This document shows positions 38,757 through 47,249 of a stretch of DNA of 64,000 nt, one piece after another; position 1 is the stretch's first letter, and each line of letters begins with the position of its first letter. Where the stretch lies: NCBI GenBank assembly GCA_963793305.1, contig CAWBZV010000003.1, forward strand, positions 1,088,001 to 1,152,000, read 5' to 3'. The translations under genes and the position numbers were made by a program. The notes under the pieces are model-generated. The model made no database searches. It was not told where the DNA came from and saw only the letters and a list, made by a program, of their open reading frames with translations. This DNA is from an uncultured Gemmatimonadales bacterium. Lineage in GTDB: Bacteria; Gemmatimonadota; Gemmatimonadetes; Gemmatimonadales; Gemmatimonadaceae.

Positions 38757-39357
38757 ATGACACGAGATCGCGCGGGTGGCACAGCGCTCATAGTGAGTGC
38801 CGGCGCCTGGATCATAGTAATGGCGTTCCATCCCACTGCGCGACAGCTCTTCGCGCCAGGACAGATGGACCAGGTCATTCGAGTAGGGACGGGCGTCCAC
38901 GCACTCGCGCTGCTCTCCCTCCCGGTCGCGTTCTTCGGCGCCGTGATTCTCTCGCAACGCCTCGAGGCCCTCGGCGCGCTGATCGCATACGGCTTCGGCG
39001 CCGTGGCGATTATGAATGCGGCGGTCTTCGACGGGCTCCTGGTGCCGAAGATCGCCGTCCGTATGAGTGACTCGGACACCTGGCGCATCCTGTTCCTGTA
39101 CAACGGGATGCTCAATCAGGCGTTCGCGCTCGTCTACGTCGTGGCGTCCTCGGCCGCGATCGTGCTGTGGTCGTTCGCGATGCGCCGTGAGGCCAAGGTC
39201 CTGGGCGTGGTCGGGATGATACTCGGCCCCCTGATCACGATCCCGGTACTGACCCATTCTGATTGGCCTCGACGCCCACGGATTCGGCATGATCGTGTTG
39301 GTCGAGGGCGCGTGGTTCATCGCCTCCGGTATCTGGCTAGTTCGTCTGAAGAGCTAA
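38757..39357 (+). CDS. Multi-TM membrane protein, frameshift near 39254
   Basis: Hydrophobic helices; removing one C restores ...GLDAHGFGMIVLVEGAWFIASGIWLVRLKS*. Confidence 0.65.
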
Positions 39358-41913
39358 CCGGGGATCGATCGTCGTCGCCCGCCGGGCGGGGAAGTAGGCC
39401 GCCGCGGCCGCGACGAGCAGCATAAACAGAACGGCGCCCGCGAGCACGCGTAGATCGAGCGGGCTCGTGCCGAAGAGCAGCGACTCGATGAGCCGCGAGA
39501 GCGCGAGCGCGCCGCAGAGGCCGAAGGCGATGCCGAGCGAGGTGACGGCCACGCCGTGGCGGAGCACCATGCCGCGAATCGACCCGCGATCGGCGCCGAG
39601 TGCGATGCGGATGCCGATCTCTTTACGTCGAAGGGTGACGACGTAGGAGAGAATGCCGAAGAGCCCGACGGCGGCGAGCGTCAAGGCGACGGCCGCGAAC
39701 GTCAGCAAGATGCGCATCGTGAACACGCGCTGCGCCGTCCCGCGCCCGATGGCGTCCTCGAGCGCCATCGGCTGATCGACGACGAGTCGCGGATCGAGCG
39801 AGGCGAGTATGCGGCGGGCCTGCGGGAGGAAGTCGAGCGCCGGGCCATCGGTGAGCACGAGCTGCGTCAGCTCCCAGTTCCGGTCGCCCGCGAATTGGCG
39901 GTGTGGATGGTAGACGTAGGTATCAACTCGCCCCGTGGCATCGACGGAGACGTCGCCAACGACGCCAATGACGACGAGCATGGGTCCGCCGGTCGACAGG
40001 CGCTGTCCCAGCGGGTCGACGCCTGGGAAGAACTGTTGTGCGGCGCTCTGGCTGATTACGACGTGACGGAGGCTGGTCGAGTCGGTGAGTGGCAGCTCGC
40101 GGTCGTCGAACACGCGGCCGGCGACGAGGGGGATGCGCGCCGCGGCGAAGTAGTTGCCGGAGACGACGCGGTTCTGCGCCAGGAAATGGAAGTCGGTGTC
40201 GGCGCCCGCCATGGGGCCGCTGGCGACGCGCACGCCCCACTGGTTGAACGCGCCCGTGGCCGGCAGCTTGGAGATCCCACCGGCGGCCCGCACGCCAGGC
40301 GTCTCTTGGAATCGCCGCGCCAATGTTTCATAGAATCTGGCACGCGCGGTCGAGTCATACAGCGCGGCGGGCAGCTCCATGCGGAACGTGAGGACGTGGT
40401 CGCCGCGCACGCCGAGTGGCGTGTCGCGGAGCCGAGCCAGACTCGCGAGAAGGAGACCGGCGCCGACGAGCAACACGAACGCCAGCGCCACTTGCACGAC
40501 GACCAACCCCGCCCGCAGCCGCCCCTGTTGCGTCGTGGCGGTTGCCCTCGCGTGGGTTTCGTTGCCGATCCGCGCCGCGCGCAGCGCGGGCGCGAGGCCA
40601 AAGACGATCGCGCTCAGTGACGAGACGCCCAGGCAAAAGAGGAGCATGCGCGGATCGAGCGAGAGGTGCTCGAGCCGCGGGATGGACTGTGAGCCCAAGC
40701 TGACGAGCCCACGCATGACGAGCCACGCCACGCCGAGGCCCAGGACGCCACCCGCAAGGGCGAGCGCCAGGCTCTCGGTCAAGAGTTGTCGCACGATGCG
40801 CCCGCGCCGGGCGCCGAGCGCGGTACGCAATGCCAACTCGGGAGTGCGCTCTGATGCCCGCACGAGGAGCAAATTCGCGACGTTGACGCACACGAGCAGC
40901 AACACGAGTCCCACGGCGCCGAACACGAGCTCGATCTCCGACCCGGCGGACCCAACGACATCGGTCTTGAGCGGTTGGAGGAGCGCCTTGATCCGCATCG
41001 TCCGCGGATCCTGTGCGGCGAACGACCGGTCCAACCCGTCGATCTCCGCCTGCGCTCGCGCCAGCGACGTCCCTGGCGTGAGCCGCGCGATCATACTGAT
41101 CCAGTGGTTGTTGGGGTTGTCGCCGCCCTGCTTCAAGTCGAGCGGTACCCACGCGTCCACATCGCCGACGACGGGATCGCGCAGTCCTTCGGGTGCCACG
41201 CCGATAACCGTATGCGGGACGCCGTCCAGCGTGAGCACGCGACCGAGGACTTTGGGGTCGCTGTTGAGCCGGCGTTGCCAGAAGCGGTGGCTCAAGACGA
41301 CGAGATGCGCCCCGTTCTCCTCGCTGACCTCGAATGGTCGTCCGAGTGGCGGCGCCGCGCGCAGCGTCGCGAAGTACTGCGCCGTAATGGGCAGCGTGCG
41401 AATGCGCTCGGCGCCCGTGCCGAGGTCGATGTCCGCGCCGGTGACGTTGTAATTCATGAACGCGGCCGCCGACTGGAACGACGTCATATGGTCGCGATAG
41501 CCCTTGAAGTGGAACGTGCTCAGAAACGTTCGCTCGCCGGGCTTGTAGTACGAGTAAACCCGAACGAGCTGCTCGGGCTCGGCGTACGGCAACGGCTTGA
41601 GCAGCACGGCGTCGACGACGCTGAACACGGCGGTCGTGCCACCGATCCCTAAGGCGAGCGTCGCGATGGCGAGCAACGCAAACCGTGGTCGCTTAATGAT
41701 GGTCCGCACGGACCAACTGAGATCCGCGATCGTCTCTTCGAGCCAGCGCGTGCCGCGCGCATCGCGGACGTCTTCTTTGTAGCGCTCGATATCCCCGAAC
41801 GACTTGCGCCCCGCCATCTCCATGTGAAAGCGCATCTCCTCGGCCATCTCGCGCTCTTCCTGGCCGCGAAACACGAGAGCGTGGAAGCGCTCGCGGAGAT
41901 CCGACCACCACAT
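39337..41913 (-). CDS. Duplicated MacB/FtsX (ADOP-type) ABC permease
   Basis: EEMRFH, LALGIGGTTAVFSVV, CVNVANLLL, EIGIRIALGA, PARRATTIDP. Confidence 0.93.
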   Translation of the reverse strand: MWWSDLRERFHALVFRGQEEREMAEEMRFHMEMAGRKSFGDIERYKEDVRDARGTRWLEETIADLSWSVRTIIKRPRFALLAIATLALGIGGTTAVFSVVDAVLLKPLPYAEPEQLVRVYSYYKPGERTFLSTFHFKGYRDHMTSFQSAAAFMNYNVTGADIDLGTGAERIRTLPITAQYFATLRAAPPLGRPFEVSEENGAHLVVLSHRFWQRRLNSDPKVLGRVLTLDGVPHTVIGVAPEGLRDPVVGDVDAWVPLDLKQGGDNPNNHWISMIARLTPGTSLARAQAEIDGLDRSFAAQDPRTMRIKALLQPLKTDVVGSAGSEIELVFGAVGLVLLLVCVNVANLLLVRASERTPELALRTALGARRGRIVRQLLTESLALALAGGVLGLGVAWLVMRGLVSLGSQSIPRLEHLSLDPRMLLFCLGVSSLSAIVFGLAPALRAARIGNETHARATATTQQGRLRAGLVVVQVALAFVLLVGAGLLLASLARLRDTPLGVRGDHVLTFRMELPAALYDSTARARFYETLARRFQETPGVRAAGGISKLPATGAFNQWGVRVASGPMAGADTDFHFLAQNRVVSGNYFAAARIPLVAGRVFDDRELPLTDSTSLRHVVISQSAAQQFFPGVDPLGQRLSTGGPMLVVIGVVGDVSVDATGRVDTYVYHPHRQFAGDRNWELTQLVLTDGPALDFLPQARRILASLDPRLVVDQPMALEDAIGRGTAQRVFTMRILLTFAAVALTLAAVGLFGILSYVVTLRRKEIGIRIALGADRGSIRGMVLRHGVAVTSLGIAFGLCGALALSRLIESLLFGTSPLDLRVLAGAVLFMLLVAAAAAYFPARRATTIDPRLALQTN

Positions 41914-41915
41914 GC

Positions 41916-42224
41916 TCACGCGAGCACCCAGTTCACGGCGGTCGATGCGCGCTCCCACTCGGCGCGCTCGGCCTCTAGCTGCTCGAGACCGACGGGCGTG
42001 ATCTCATAGTACCGCGCCCGCCGGTTGTTCTCACTGGCCCGCCATGCCGACTTGATCCAGCCCCGCCGCTTCATGCGCACGAGCGCGGGGTACAGCGAGC
42101 CTTGTTGGACCAGGAACACCCCGCGCGACATCTGCTGCACGCGCTGCGCAATGCCCCACCCGTGCATGGGCGATTCCCGCAGCGTGCGCAGGACGAGCAT
42201 CTCGAGTGTGCCTTGGAGTATCAT
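41916..42224 (-). CDS. PadR-family regulator (Acidobacteria type)
   Basis: LQGTLEMLVL, MHGWGI, GSLYPAL, SENNRRARYY. Confidence 0.93.
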   Translation of the reverse strand: MILQGTLEMLVLRTLRESPMHGWGIAQRVQQMSRGVFLVQQGSLYPALVRMKRRGWIKSAWRASENNRRARYYEITPVGLEQLEAERAEWERASTAVNWVLA

Positions 42225-42227
42225 GCT

Positions 42228-42261
42228 CCTGTAGATTGTCTACAGGTAAGCGAAGTGTCAA
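42228..42261 (-). promoter_or_regulatory. PadR promoter-operator
   Basis: Perfect dyad CCTGTAGA-TTG-TCTACAGG (42228-42246); TTGACA at 42261-42256. Confidence 0.75.
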
Positions 42262-43766
42262 GGCACTCGGGTGTAGCGCGTGATCACCTCTCGCACGGCA
42301 TCGGTCGCCGTAAACTCCTCCATTTTCGGCGGCGCCTCCGCTCCCGCCTCGAGTAGCGCCTGGACGGCGCCCGCAAAGTCCCCGGTGTCGCGATGCCAGC
42401 CGTTCTCCGACCCATAACAGGCCCACCCCAGCGGCGTCATCGCGTACACCCCCTCGAACAGATCCACCGTGGGATGATACCGCAGGATCTCCCGTACCAT
42501 CGCCGCATTGCCGTGGAATCCGGCCCAATGGAGCGCGGCCCCTCCATGCGTGCCGACGAAGTCGACCGGCCAGCCCGCGCCGAGCATCAGCCGCACGGCG
42601 TCGAGATTATTGTTCTCGGCCGCGTCGGCGAGCTTGCGATTGTCGGCGTCCGATAGCGTCGCCACCAGATTGGGCTTCTGTTTCAGCAGGTCACGAAACG
42701 CTGCCTCATCCCCGACCTCGGCGGCAATCGCGAACCGCAGGTCGCTCGGGCTTCGGTCCATGAGCAGCTGATAGACATCCGGATGCCCGAAGGACTTCGC
42801 GATGCTGTGCGCCGTCCGGTGGTGCCCGAGGACCCATATATAGATGGTCCCGCCGGCCTCCGGGTTCTTCTTCGGGAACCAGTGCTCGTCCACGCGCGTC
42901 CTGATCGACTCGGGATCAGCGTCGAGGTGTTTCTTCACGAGCGCGATATCGCCGAGCGCCGAGGCCATCAGAATATCCGTTCGACACCCGCGGGCGACGA
43001 GCGCGCGCGCAACGTCGGTGCGCTCCTTCGCAAAGTGACGCGTCTGCGTGACGCGCAGCATGTACTGCGCCGGCGTCGACTCGTGGTCGATATCCAATGC
43101 GTCGATATCGGCGCCGTGTTCGAGTAGCAACTGGGCGATCTCCATCGTCGACGCCATGTGCAACGGTGTCTGTCCGTCGGGCCCGTGGAAATGAACGACC
43201 GATGGACGCGTGGCGATCATCGCCCGGAGCTCGTCGATCATGCCAAGCCGCGCCGCGGCCGGCGCTTCGGCAATCGCGCCGCGCTCGATGAGATACGGCG
43301 CGAATTCGGCGCTCGTCTGATCGAGCACATGGAACCCACCGGCCCACCAGTGGCTCTTCTGGTTGATATCGGCGCCGAATTCCAAGAGCACGTCGACCAT
43401 CGGTCCATTGGTTCGCATGACGACTTCGAGGAGCGCCGTTTGGCCGAACGAGCTCCCGGCGAAGGGTTCGTTGATCCCCGCTCTGAGCGCTGGCGAGGAA
43501 GCGAGGATCCGTCGCATGGCCGCCGGGTCGTGTCTAATGATTGCGTCCATGAGGGCACGCGCCGGATCGGCCGCCATCACGAGGGTCTCGACGTGATTCT
43601 TGAGATCCGCCCACGTCGAGAACCCATACTCACGGGCGGTTTCGTGTTGCGCGTCGGATAGTTGCCGGCGCGTGCCGGGGTCCTGCTGTCGCCATTCGCG
43701 CAGCAGGGCTTTGGCTTGCTTACGGAGATGTTCGAGGTTCGGCTGGGCCGGTAGTTCGCGGGACAT
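42258..43766 (-). CDS. Ankyrin-repeat protein with N-terminal LPAQPNLEHLRKQAK domain
   Basis: GQTPLH...LLLEHGADID, GAALHW, TPLGWA repeats. Confidence 0.9.
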   Translation of the reverse strand: MSRELPAQPNLEHLRKQAKALLREWRQQDPGTRRQLSDAQHETAREYGFSTWADLKNHVETLVMAADPARALMDAIIRHDPAAMRRILASSPALRAGINEPFAGSSFGQTALLEVVMRTNGPMVDVLLEFGADINQKSHWWAGGFHVLDQTSAEFAPYLIERGAIAEAPAAARLGMIDELRAMIATRPSVVHFHGPDGQTPLHMASTMEIAQLLLEHGADIDALDIDHESTPAQYMLRVTQTRHFAKERTDVARALVARGCRTDILMASALGDIALVKKHLDADPESIRTRVDEHWFPKKNPEAGGTIYIWVLGHHRTAHSIAKSFGHPDVYQLLMDRSPSDLRFAIAAEVGDEAAFRDLLKQKPNLVATLSDADNRKLADAAENNNLDAVRLMLGAGWPVDFVGTHGGAALHWAGFHGNAAMVREILRYHPTVDLFEGVYAMTPLGWACYGSENGWHRDTGDFAGAVQALLEAGAEAPPKMEEFTATDAVREVITRYTRVP

Positions 43767-43890
43767 AGCTCCTCCTTCCGTGACGCCCGGTGTCCGCTAT
43801 TTCGGGCAGAAGAGAGGATGCATTGGGCAATCGATATGGCTCAGGTGGGATAATCCCTTTCCGCGGACGGGGTGCGACCTGGATCGCAAC
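43767..43890 (-). ncRNA. Candidate structured cis-regulatory leader RNA
   Basis: Several complementary segments, including an anti-SD/SD pair and GUCCGC/GCGGAC; extended -10 TGnTATAGT at 43902-43894. Confidence 0.55.
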
Positions 43891-43924
43891 TGTACTATAA
43901 CACATTTCGTCTCTAAGTTGGCTA

Positions 43925-45541
43925 ATGGCTTATCGCGTGCTGCTCACCGACAACATCGACCCTGATGGCGTGGCCGTACTGACGGCCGAGCCCGAGCTCT
44001 CGGTCGACACCGTTCCGACGCTCTCACGCGAGGATCTGATCGCGCGCATCGGGGTGTACGATGCGTTGGTCGCGCGGAGTGCGACGCGAGTGTCCCGGGA
44101 GGTGCTGCGCGCGGGGTCACGGCTCGCGGTCGTGGGCCGTGCAGGCGCGGGGGTCGACAACATCGCGGTCGACGCGGCGACCGAGATGGGCATTGCGGTC
44201 ATCAATGCTCCAGCCGGCAACACGGTCGCCGTGGCCGAGCTGTTCTTCGGGTCCGTATTGAGCCTGTTGCGCCACATCCCACAGGCCGACCGCTCGATCC
44301 GCGAGGGCCGCTGGGAGAAAACCCGATTCTTGGGACGCGAGTTGCGGGGGCGCACGCTCGGTATCATTGGCCTGGGTCGCATCGGCGGCGAGATCGCGAC
44401 GCGCGCGCACGCATTCGGCATGACGGTGGTCGCCTACGACCCGTACGTGGGCGACGCGCGATTCCATGCGCTACGCGTTCGTCGCGCGACGGTGCTCGAC
44501 GACATGCTGGCCGAGTCGTCGGTCCTCTCCGTGCACACGCCGCTGGTCGAGAATGAAGGGCTCCTCGGCGAGCGTGAGCTATCGCGCTTGCCGGTGGGCG
44601 CGATCGTCGCGAACCTCGCGCGTGGCGGCATTATTGACGAGAGCGCGCTGGCCGCGGCGCTCGTCGGCGATCATCTGGCCGGGGCGGTCCTCGACGTGTT
44701 CGGAACGGAGCCGCTGCCGGCCGATCATCCGCTGCGCGCGGCGCCGAACGTCGTGCTCACGCCGCACATCGGTGCGTCGACCATCGAAGCGCAGCGCTCC
44801 GTTGCCGTCGACGTGTGCCGTGCGGTGCGCGATGCATTGTTGCACGGTGAGCTCTCGCGTTCGATCAACGCCGCGCTGGTCGAGGGTGTCAACGCCGCCG
44901 ACGTCCGCCCGGCGCTCCTGCTCACTCGCCAACTCGCCGCCGTCGCACAGGCACTGCTCGCGAGCCGTGAGGCGCGCGCGATCGACCGTGTCGAGGTGAC
45001 GCCGGGCGAGTCGCTGGCGGGTGCTCGCGACGCATTGCTCGCCGCGGCCGCGCACGGTGTGCTCGCTCCGGTGCTCTCGCACGAGCGGCTGAACCTGATC
45101 AACGCCCGCGCCCTCGCTGTCGCTCGCGGCATCGCGCTCTCGGCCACCGAACGCGTGCCGGCCGAAAACGGCGCGGCGGCGTATTCGCTCAGCGTCCGCG
45201 TCTCGAGTGGCGCCGAGGAGATCACGGTCACTGGCTCGGCGCATCCCGCGGCCGCACCGCGGATCACGCGCATCGGTGCGTTCCGCGTCGACGTGTATCC
45301 TCGCGGCACGCTCCTCATTTTGTCCAACCGCGACGTGCCCGGCGTCATCGGTCACGTCGGTACGGTGCTCGGCGCGGCCCACGCGAACATCGCCGAGTAT
45401 CACCAGGCGCGCTTGGCCCAAGGCGGCGCGGCGCTGGCGGCGATCACCGTCGACGGTCCGGTGGGCGACGAGGTCCGCTCGGCGTTGCTCGCGTTGCCCG
45501 AGGTTCACGCGGTCACCGTCGTCGAGCTGCCGGCCGAGTAG
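43925..45541 (+). CDS. serA: D-3-phosphoglycerate dehydrogenase
   Basis: GRAGAGVDNI, GLGRIG, TPHIGAST, C-terminal ACT domain (NRDVPGVIG). Confidence 0.95.
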   Translation: MAYRVLLTDNIDPDGVAVLTAEPELSVDTVPTLSREDLIARIGVYDALVARSATRVSREVLRAGSRLAVVGRAGAGVDNIAVDAATEMGIAVINAPAGNTVAVAELFFGSVLSLLRHIPQADRSIREGRWEKTRFLGRELRGRTLGIIGLGRIGGEIATRAHAFGMTVVAYDPYVGDARFHALRVRRATVLDDMLAESSVLSVHTPLVENEGLLGERELSRLPVGAIVANLARGGIIDESALAAALVGDHLAGAVLDVFGTEPLPADHPLRAAPNVVLTPHIGASTIEAQRSVAVDVCRAVRDALLHGELSRSINAALVEGVNAADVRPALLLTRQLAAVAQALLASREARAIDRVEVTPGESLAGARDALLAAAAHGVLAPVLSHERLNLINARALAVARGIALSATERVPAENGAAAYSLSVRVSSGAEEITVTGSAHPAAAPRITRIGAFRVDVYPRGTLLILSNRDVPGVIGHVGTVLGAAHANIAEYHQARLAQGGAALAAITVDGPVGDEVRSALLALPEVHAVTVVELPAE

Positions 45542-46179
45542 TGCCGTTCGCGTCGGTCATTCTCGACGTCGATTCGACGCTGACGAGTGTGGAAGGGATT
45601 GCCTGGCTGGGGGCCCGTCGGGGTGCGGCCGTCATGGCGGCAGTCGACGCGATGACGGCTGATGCGATGACGGGTGCCTTACCACTAGATGCCGTGTACG
45701 CGAAACGCCTATCGCTCGTCCGCCCATCGCGTACCGATCTCGCCGCCCTCGCCGAGGCCTACGCGGCGGGTCTCATGCCTGGCGCTCGTGACGCGATTGG
45801 CACGCTCCGCGAAGCGGGCGTGCACTTATCGCTCGTCAGCGGCGGTCTCCGCGAAGCCATCTTGCCCTTCGCGGCCGGTTTGGGGTTCACCACCAAGGAT
45901 GTCCACGCGGTGGAGCTCCAATTCACGCCGGATGGCGCCTACGCCGGATTCGACGCCGCCACTCCGCTCGCCTGTGCCGGCGGCAAGCCCCGCGTCGCGC
46001 GCACCCTCGGCCTGCGCGGCCCGGTGCTCGCGGTTGGCGATGGCAGCACCGACGCCGAGCTCAAACCGTGCGTCGACGCTTTCGCCGCATTCACGGGCGT
46101 CGCGCGCCGGGAATCTGTCGTCGCCGTCGCCGATTACGTCATCACTCAATTCGCCGAGCTGCCTGCTCTCGTCCTATGA
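45541..46179 (+). CDS. serB: Phosphoserine phosphatase (HAD family)
   Basis: DVDST, VSGG, GDGSTD; coupled to serA. Confidence 0.85.
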   Translation: MPFASVILDVDSTLTSVEGIAWLGARRGAAVMAAVDAMTADAMTGALPLDAVYAKRLSLVRPSRTDLAALAEAYAAGLMPGARDAIGTLREAGVHLSLVSGGLREAILPFAAGLGFTTKDVHAVELQFTPDGAYAGFDAATPLACAGGKPRVARTLGLRGPVLAVGDGSTDAELKPCVDAFAAFTGVARRESVVAVADYVITQFAELPALVL

Positions 46180-47249
46180 CTTTCGGCACCTTCTTCGTCC
46201 CCGGTCCCACCGAAGTCCGCCCCGAGATCCTCCAGGCGATGACCCAGCCGATGATCTCCCACCGCGGCTCGGCGTTTCGCTCACTATTCGAGCGCTGTCA
46301 GACTGGCCTCCGCACTGTCTTCTGCACCAACCGCCCAGTCTTCATCGCGACGTGCTCGGCCACGGGCCTGATGGAAGCCGCGATCCGCAACGCGCCTCCC
46401 GGCAGCGTGCTCGCCTGCGTCAACGGCGCCTTCTCCGATCGCTTCTCGCTGATCGCCGAGAAGTGCGGCCGCGTATCGGAACGCTACGAAGTCCCGTGGG
46501 GTGAGGTCCACGACTCGGCCACAGTCGCCGCCCGCGTATCCGCCGGCCACCACACTGTCGTTGCCGTCGTCCACTCCGAGACATCCACAGGCGCCCTCAA
46601 CGACGTGCGCGCAATCTCCGACGCCGCCCACCGCGCGGGCGCTGTCTGCGTGATCGACAGCGTCAGCGGCATCCGCGGCGCCGAGCTGCGGTTCGACGAC
46701 TGGGGCCTCGACTTCGTCTTCACGGGCTCCCAAAAGGCACTCGCGCTCCCTCCGGGCCTCGCCTTCGGCGTCGCCACCGAGCGCTTCCTCTCCTCCGGCG
46801 ACCGCTCCGCGCGTGGCGCGTACTTCGACCTCGCCGAGTTCGCGTCGGGAGCAGCGAAGGGCGAAGCTCCCAATACGCCCGCGATCTCTCTTTACTACGC
46901 CCTCGCGGCGCAACTCGAGTGCATCCTGGAAGAAGGCATCGAGAACGCGTGGAAACGCCACGCCGCGATGGCGGCGATGACATACGCGTGGGCCGAGGAT
47001 CTCACGCGCGACGGGATTGCGGTGAGCCCGTTCGCGAAGGCCGGCCATCGCTCGCCGACGGTGACCGCGATCTCATTGCCGAAGGGCATCACCGGCGAAG
47101 CCGTCGTGAAGGCCGTGTCTGCGGCCGGCATCACACTCGGCGCGGGATACGGGAAGCTCAAAGACACGACGATCCGGATCGGCCACATGGGCGACCATAC
47201 ACCGGAGACCGTCGAGCGCTGTCTCGAGAAGCTGGCCGGCGCGTTGTAA
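46176..47249 (+). CDS. Class V PLP aminotransferase, probable phosphoserine aminotransferase role
   Basis: PGPT, HSETSTG, GSQKALALPPG, RIGHMG; third gene of the ser operon. Confidence 0.88.
   Translation: MTFGTFFVPGPTEVRPEILQAMTQPMISHRGSAFRSLFERCQTGLRTVFCTNRPVFIATCSATGLMEAAIRNAPPGSVLACVNGAFSDRFSLIAEKCGRVSERYEVPWGEVHDSATVAARVSAGHHTVVAVVHSETSTGALNDVRAISDAAHRAGAVCVIDSVSGIRGAELRFDDWGLDFVFTGSQKALALPPGLAFGVATERFLSSGDRSARGAYFDLAEFASGAAKGEAPNTPAISLYYALAAQLECILEEGIENAWKRHAAMAAMTYAWAEDLTRDGIAVSPFAKAGHRSPTVTAISLPKGITGEAVVKAVSAAGITLGAGYGKLKDTTIRIGHMGDHTPETVERCLEKLAGAL

Follow-up and report, generated by a model that had tools for sequence, protein, structure and literature searches.

The question raised by this locus is whether the 158-nt intergenic gap between a minus-strand ankyrin gene and a divergent serA-like gene carries a regulatory RNA and, if so, what such an RNA responds to. 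The window, meaning the whole 64,000-nt stretch of DNA that was analysed, derives from an uncultured Gemmatimonadales bacterium. A sequence-only reading of it had proposed a structured leader behind an extended -10 element, comprising a 5' hairpin, a GGGA/UCCC hairpin, an alternative CAGGU/ACCUG pairing and a 3' hairpin that engages the Shine-Dalgarno (SD) sequence and carries a loop complementary to an upstream hexamer. All of the segments named are present on the minus strand, at the coordinates given below together with the other features of the locus.

42258..43766, minus strand: 502-aa gene encoding a head domain and ankyrin repeats (Ank_2, E 2.6e-24).
43581..43766, minus strand: head domain, residues 1-62, three helices, basic, a candidate RNA-binding module.
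43902-43894, minus strand: extended -10-like hexamer, TG-n-TATAGT (TGTTATAGT), a predicted promoter element.
About 43887-43888, minus strand: predicted transcription start, from the spacing of the -10-like hexamer; equals the first base of P1.
43873..43888, minus strand: P1 hairpin, in which 43888-43884 pairs with 43877-43873 and the loop holds CAGG (43881-43878).
43861..43871, minus strand: P1b, a 2-bp helix (pairs 43871:43861 and 43870:43862) closing the loop that contains GUCCGC.
43868-43863, minus strand: kissing hexamer GUCCGC, in the P1b loop.
43860-43858, minus strand: purine linker, preceding P2.
43847..43857, minus strand: P2 hairpin, GGGA/UCCC, with two covarying pairs (E about 0).
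43842..43846, minus strand: conserved unpaired A and CCUG, the latter being the 3' strand of pseudoknot 1, with the P1 loop as partner.
43819..43841, minus strand: variable linker, 16-35 nt (median 25) in 100 homologues.
43818-43809, minus strand: anti-SD strand of P3 (UCCUCUCUUC), covarying with the SD.
43785..43807, minus strand: P4 hairpin, in which 43807-43803 pairs with 43789-43785; two pairs covary (E<0.05).
43797-43792, minus strand: GCGGAC, partner of the kissing hexamer, in the P4 loop.
43778-43770, minus strand: Shine-Dalgarno sequence and 3' strand of P3 (GAAGGAGGA), with an unpaired probability of 0.01 here.

The predicted overall fold is a 5' knot (P1, P1b, the purine linker, P2 and pseudoknot 1), a linker and a 3' P3-P4 hairpin, with the loops of the two parts kissing. 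The G-U pairs in P3 identify the RNA strand as the sense strand of the gene. A TAnnnT hexamer ending 4-12 nt 5' of P1 occurs in 76 of 100 homologues and in 17 of 792 control windows; a consensus promoter scan returned no site. The hexamer spacing supports the predicted transcript start at the RNA itself, giving a leader of about 120 nt, in agreement with the length that had been predicted from the extended -10 element. Directly downstream of the ankyrin gene lie a PadR regulator and a MacB/FtsX ABC permease (39337-42224, minus strand), a neighbourhood that is not kept in distant loci, and the next downstream genes are unconserved overall (49 of 56 are singletons). On the plus strand, the divergent serA is followed by HAD phosphatase-like and class V aminotransferase-like ORFs, assigned by eye (43925-47249). 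This cluster is likely devoted to serine synthesis and unrelated to the leader. The divergent serA neighbour was seen in three close relatives.

The minimum free energy (MFE) fold of the window's own leader contains P1, the GGGA/UCCC hairpin and the SD-pairing 3' hairpin, as the sequence-only reading had described them, and the 3' hairpin (-20.1 kcal/mol) forms unaided. The stability of the single leader is that expected by chance (z 0.39; 124 of 200 shuffles fold equally well), and some perfect 6-bp complement occurs in 893 of 1000 shuffles. The SD has an unpaired probability below 0.3 in 73 of 100 homologues. Opening the region from the SD to the start codon costs 9.5 kcal/mol here and a median of 10.6 in 100 homologues, compared with 10.5 kcal/mol at 51 unvalidated SD-plus-ORF sites in the same GC-rich genome, which makes the leader ordinary in this respect. 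Single-sequence stability, being no better than shuffles and controls, was dropped as evidence.

The evidence for the fold comes from homologues, since orthologous genes in relatives have a clearly conserved leader. Covariation among the leaders of genes starting LPxxPNLEHLxKQAK had been suggested as a check, and these leaders proved both conserved and covarying. In alignment A3, which holds 56 rows from protein-selected loci (including 4 weak or partial rows) and was fitted to the nested helices and not to the pseudoknots, 89.6% of cells are paired and double-sided changes occur in 28 of 35 pairs; the covariation score of 0.346 compares with 0.144 for shuffled and 0.08-0.12 for slid alignments. 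A tree-aware G-test of our own on 100 sequences, 50 protein-selected and 50 pattern-selected (pattern positions are therefore under-varied), gave ten Watson-Crick pairs at E<0.05, namely two each in P1, P2, P3 and P4 and one each in pseudoknot 1 and P1b; one extra significant pair is non-canonical and probably spurious. Both P1 pairs reach E<0.01, with double changes in 4/5 pairs of A3, and P2 is 99.5% paired in the same alignment. Pseudoknot 1 has double changes in 5/5 pairs of A3, and its pair 15-65 has an E of about 0. Between the anti-SD and SD strands of P3, pairs 114-170 and 115-169 reach E about 0.01, with double changes in 10/10 pairs and 79.8% pairing. P1b, which the initial inspection had overlooked, emerged from unguided covariation as pair 25-36 of alignment A5 (98% paired; CG 87, GC 6, UA 3, AU 2; E about 0). 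Judged by covariation, P1, pseudoknot 1, P1b, P2, P3 and P4 are shown to be real. The CAGGU/ACCUG pairing noted earlier does covary, but it is no alternative fold: CAGG/CCUG is compatible with P1 and forms a pseudoknot.

The kissing helix is 100% paired, with a double change in 3 of its 6 pairs, each in one sequence and in two sequences overall; in the first leader type, that of the window, it is too invariant for significance in the tree-aware test. A kiss between the P1b and P4 loops is thereby supported, and the GUCCGC/GCGGAC complementarity noted earlier persists, recast as a loop-loop contact with GUCCGC held inside P1b. Base triples between the 5' CC and P4 showed no significant covariation. 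Because the linker is never shorter than 16 nt, the kiss could form with P3 closed. In one locus (L188:270-439), short AT-rich repeats have swollen the linker to about 80 nt, with both domains intact. A search for an anti-anti-SD helix serving as an ON state found no conserved alternative above about 0.14 mean pair probability in the 100 homologues. Of the translational switch originally proposed, the conserved SD-pairing leader therefore stands; the switching, for which the homologues offer no conserved alternative helix, is something we infer.

With an SD-pairing hairpin present, as in RNA thermometers, the leader might be a fixed or temperature-tuned translational damper that lowers expression or melts under stress and has no specific partner. 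An SD stem that forms unaided and is rich in G-U pairs suits such a device. A single hairpin would be enough for it, however. The conservation of the 5' knot, kissing hexamers that hardly vary and the tie to a single protein domain are left unexplained, and the match to the SodB thermometer, at 14.6 bits where the cut-off is 98, is noise. A damper is very improbable, and the least probable of the explanations weighed here.

The tie to a single domain was established in both directions. A 27-nt core of the leader served as the search pattern on GTDB, where it matches an estimated 1,600 or so stretches, and 119 of these were fetched. From RNA to protein, 104 of the 119 loci consist of the full motif followed by a head domain; the remaining 15 comprise three at contig ends, one broken head gene and 11 chance matches devoid of P1 and the 3' hairpin. 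From protein to RNA, 58 head-selected loci were fetched from 121 genomes of Gemmatimonadota, and 52 have the leader at E<=3.4e-5 (48 of 54 after removal of four training duplicates). Of the six head loci with no leader match, four have heads that are weak or partial, one has the third leader type and one retains the remnant of a deleted leader. Run over the same 121 genomes, the RNA model returned 57 matches: head genes account for 52, truncated relics for 3 and chance for 2. No intact copy of the first leader type stands before a headless gene among the pattern loci and the 121-genome matches. By record title, the true matches span at least eight phyla, mostly of soil bacteria, which we take to be Acidobacteriota, Actinomycetota, Pseudomonadota, Gemmatimonadota, Planctomycetota, Verrucomicrobiota, Myxococcota and Eisenbacteria. 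In all three counts (104/119, 52/58 and 52/57), the RNA lies in the 5' UTR of the operon encoding its presumed partner, as in autogenous leaders. The RNA follows the head, and not the cargo or pathway, as would be expected of a protein-binding leader in the definition of PMC11109978 and as is seen with ribosomal-protein operators (PMC3616713). The co-occurrence could also reflect plain co-inheritance of the leader with its gene. Between the two triggers initially entertained, a ligand or the downstream protein, the evidence leans to the protein.

A second leader copy in this genome (L195, G000:C5:1030815-1032600; E 2.6e-16) lies before a head-ankyrin paralogue with a frameshift about 80 codons in, indicating either a pseudogene or an assembly error. 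Two tandem head-ankyrin genes (L004:1-2900, G005:C289) have their own leader copy each. Truncated relics of the leader occur at apparent deletion junctions (L324-L326 and L181), one of them with a decayed head remnant, and leader RNA and head gene seem to decay together.

The leader might also act as a released RNA, self-cleaving or processed, that associates stably with the head protein, for instance in an antitoxin-like manner. Small ribozymes and type III antitoxin RNAs have a compact double-knot topology, which the leader resembles, and the RNA begins at the predicted 5' end of the transcript. Nevertheless, its covarying stem includes the SD and ties it to translation in cis; it is present as a single copy with no repeats; Rfam gave no ribozyme or antitoxin match and PADLOC no match for the head; and the only two pattern matches on viral contigs both lack support from the RNA model. 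These points leave such a released RNA only a slim chance.

The head domain is predicted to form three helices (pLDDT 86) and is homologous to the N-terminal 55-60 residues of PF20066 (Glyoxalase_8; hhalign 96.8%, E 2.4e-10); the window's ankyrin protein itself has no PF20066 match at E<=0.1. While the name of PF20066 implies an enzyme, the part held in common with the head is a three-helix module found on unrelated bodies. The head family comprises 11,807 clusters at 50% identity (E<=0.001). Heads are basic, with a median net charge of +3 and a positive charge in 91% of 98 proteins, whereas the rest of the protein is acidic (-2.9 per 100 aa). Position 15 is K/R in 90% and 100% of the two head types, and position 19 in 99% and 100%. 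Against known structures, Foldseek returned nothing at E<=0.001 and the best Z was 4.6; no solved relative was found by sequence or fold, and Atlas matches were only hypothetical proteins, under 0.9. The charge and the kept K/R residues would suit a nucleic-acid-binding partner, but none of the structure or family searches gave a significant match to such a protein. A cargo scan of 64 proteins, among the 71 pattern loci with long flanks, assigned 57 to ankyrin, 2 to LRR, 2 to PF20066 only and 3 to no family. Other bodies joined to heads include Clp_N, a ClpX zinc finger and FliM (among 32 chosen top matches), VOC and the ATPase-like PRK05973, and VOC/bleomycin-binding-like cargo stands behind some heads. 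In 7 of 98 proteins the head is repeated, so that the domain may serve some other function. In two FliM-matching proteins with head-like domains (P0053 and P0122), the best head match is internal, at about residues 87-156.

PF20066 genes in Alphaproteobacteria are preceded by a second leader, which looks different and has the same topology: the P1 loop pairs beyond the purine linker, CC/GG surround the kissing hexamer, and the partner hexamer lies in the loop of the 3' hairpin. The accessory hairpin precedes the purine linker, whereas in the first type it follows it. The hexamers of the two types differ by two compensatory pairs, and one variant is common to both (L159 and L353). The second type also covaries, its kissing helix reaching E 0.033, and has no Rfam match. 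The models of the first and second types show no significant cross-match either way; we infer the kinship of the leader types from topology and partner, not from score. A pattern for the second type matches about 490 metagenome stretches. Its model matches 8/8 protein-selected PF20066 loci; in two small orders the leader is found at 7/8 and 8/8 PF20066 loci with no match elsewhere, and all 7 strong matches in 81 genomes lie at PF20066 genes. After 23 of 120 rows had been dropped as chance, 97 second-type loci were kept, of which 75 have the leader directly before a head and 15 directly before a MATE gene. The MATE assignments rest on Pfam in eight cases and on visible similarity in seven, and the 1.5-kb metagenome flanks are too short to show a head gene.

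These MATE-first leaders were considered as proof of a ligand, a use that has been weakened. Eight of 401 genomes have the MATE orthologue; five of them have a leader at the MATE locus, and the same five have a PF20066 gene, adjacent in four and located elsewhere with its own leader in one. The three MATE genomes devoid of the leader have no PF20066 match. The MATE leader therefore tracks a genomic head gene in 5/5 testable cases. On a Paracoccus plasmid, the order is leader, MATE, head gene. An Agrobacterium plasmid carries leader and MATE with no annotated head within 5 kb, in a search confined to the plasmid. In L346-L348, L350, L353, L359 and L360, a single operon downstream of the second leader type holds this MATE subfamily together with PF20066 genes, and either may come first.

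Head-VOC genes, both in this genome and on five rhizobial plasmids, have a leader of a third type, which is shorter.

L187:388-476 (G000:C3:1020437-1020525) and L366-L370: third leader type.

The third type keeps the 5' knot, with pseudoknot 1 fully paired and two double changes in one sequence; its six sequences, which are too few for statistics, are 91.7% paired, not above shuffles (69/500). The first-type model misses it (best E 0.23). In its predicted consensus fold, the 3' strand of P1 also pairs with the bases just before the AUG, so that the two pairings would compete, and two states might be most readily observed in this type. In addition, the proteins of the PRK05973 (NF004629) genes in L362-L365 have a head-like N-terminus (E 1e-8 to 4e-7 among the three rows listed). 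These genes share a fourth conserved leader, about 120 nt upstream of the start codon, which has a 5' tract rich in C, two tracts resembling an SD and no Rfam match. Near the end of one PRK05973 gene (L363:1293-1358, plus strand), a match to the SorX sRNA scored 46.1 against a 46.6-bit cut-off.

These leaders bear on a further explanation, that of an orphan small-molecule or ion riboswitch in which the two pseudoknots close a pocket, a ligand docks the 5' knot on P4 and alters access to the SD, and head genes together with MATE form a detoxification or stress regulon. The leader is a complex, conserved 5' UTR structure with an expression platform at the SD, and its double pseudoknot, its 31 columns conserved at >=95% (paired and unpaired alike) and its spread over at least eight phyla by record title all speak for a riboswitch. 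Near-invariant bases and a kissing architecture also suit a ligand pocket, the second type stands before non-homologous MATE genes as well, and some cargoes are VOC/bleomycin-binding-like. Gene function excepted, the leader also fits the strong-candidate criteria given in the accessible part of PMC11109978. On the other hand, no intact first-type copy was seen before a headless gene, the MATE orthologues are leaderless in the three genomes that have no head gene, and one domain is accompanied by three leaders of distinct sequence, an arrangement that a shared ligand would not call for. A riboswitch is consequently rather unlikely, albeit well short of negligible.

Comparison with catalogued RNA families yielded no identity. 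Rfam 15 gave 0 matches in the window at the gathering threshold; near the locus at E<=10 it returned only mir-346 and SodB (E 3.9-5.3, noise), and it gave none for two further sets of related leaders, from 14 and 9 loci, so that the initial failure to assign an Rfam family was borne out. The sul1 motif (RF03058) was rejected: its best E is 5.4, elsewhere in the genome; its model has no match at the locus, at the third-type leader of this genome or at related loci; and the downstream genes encode head-domain proteins. Like the leader, sul1 is an orphan cis-regulatory 5' UTR motif, but in the available portion of PMC5737381 it precedes sulfate transporters and sulfur/methionine genes, which the leader does not.

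In ZTP riboswitches, a variable linker connects a 5' domain to a 3' hairpin, and the loop of that hairpin base-pairs with the 5' domain. The leader shares this layout, but it has an extra P1-loop pseudoknot and its 3' hairpin runs into the SD stem. Identity with ZTP was likewise rejected, as there is no Rfam match and the downstream genes are not the purine or folate genes given as the context of ZTP (pfl) riboswitches in the part of PMC7266159 available. COMPASS cluster #630,527 (bioRxiv 10.64898/2026.10.21.760802), compared by description only and a possible counterpart of the second or third leader type, is also an unnamed covarying motif directly upstream of glyoxalase genes; unlike the leader, it also precedes flavin monooxygenases and NmrA-like proteins. 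No published description of the leader was found, although the supplements of PMC5737381 and PMC11109978 and the COMPASS database lay beyond the search and may hold the motif; the single supplementary file of PMC8632094 and the 11 of PMC6429828 contain no mention of 'ankyrin', 'glyoxalase' or 'PRK05973'. On comparative grounds, the leader is a real, widespread and uncatalogued cis-regulatory RNA, whose most likely role is that of the RNA partner in an RNA-protein regulatory module.

The closest functional analogues are ribosomal-protein leaders such as those of S15, S4 and S2, which are structured, in some cases pseudoknotted, and thought to be bound and inhibited by their product (PMC3616713, available portion). 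Both kinds are structured 5' leaders before the gene of a presumed binder, binding being predicted here; the partner in the present case differs in being non-ribosomal, in having no known RNA target and in being portable across many cargoes. On balance, the leader is somewhat more probably than otherwise an autogenous translational control element bound by the head of its own product. The undocked leader would allow low-level translation, given an opening cost that is ordinary for the genome. The 5' knot would dock on the P4 loop, and the head would hold this docking through conserved K/R residues at positions 15, 19 and 45, which would lock P3 and shut translation. The cargo domain would act as a sensor or titration site, and its occupation would free the message, including co-transcribed genes such as those of MATE pumps. 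The sign of the effect, repression or activation, is the weakest step of this mechanism: because the 3' strand of P1 is predicted to pair with the bases before the AUG in the third type, the knotted state there would be ON, opposite to the sign proposed.

More broadly, the head could be an unrecognised RNA-binding module that, together with pseudoknotted leaders of at least three architectures built on one knot core, and perhaps a fourth in front of PRK05973 genes, makes up a portable one-component translational regulator, in which swapped cargoes (ankyrin, LRR, VOC, Clp_N/ClpX zinc finger, ATPase) supply the signal and the output includes, for example, MATE pumps; this generalisation is offered tentatively, as a possibility with the odds somewhat against it.

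Doubly pseudoknotted leaders that are widespread, strongly conserved and outside Rfam are rarely found. The question of what this one binds is directly testable, as the natural compensatory variants are ready-made mutant pairs. If small-molecule binding were true, the leader would represent a new riboswitch class, with a ligand that would make sense of thousands of bacterial ankyrin and 'glyoxalase superfamily' proteins. If instead the head binds the leader, a very large unannotated domain family would gain a function, and bacteria would possess a modular regulator that acts at the RNA level, is comparable to one-component transcription factors and may control efflux pumps.
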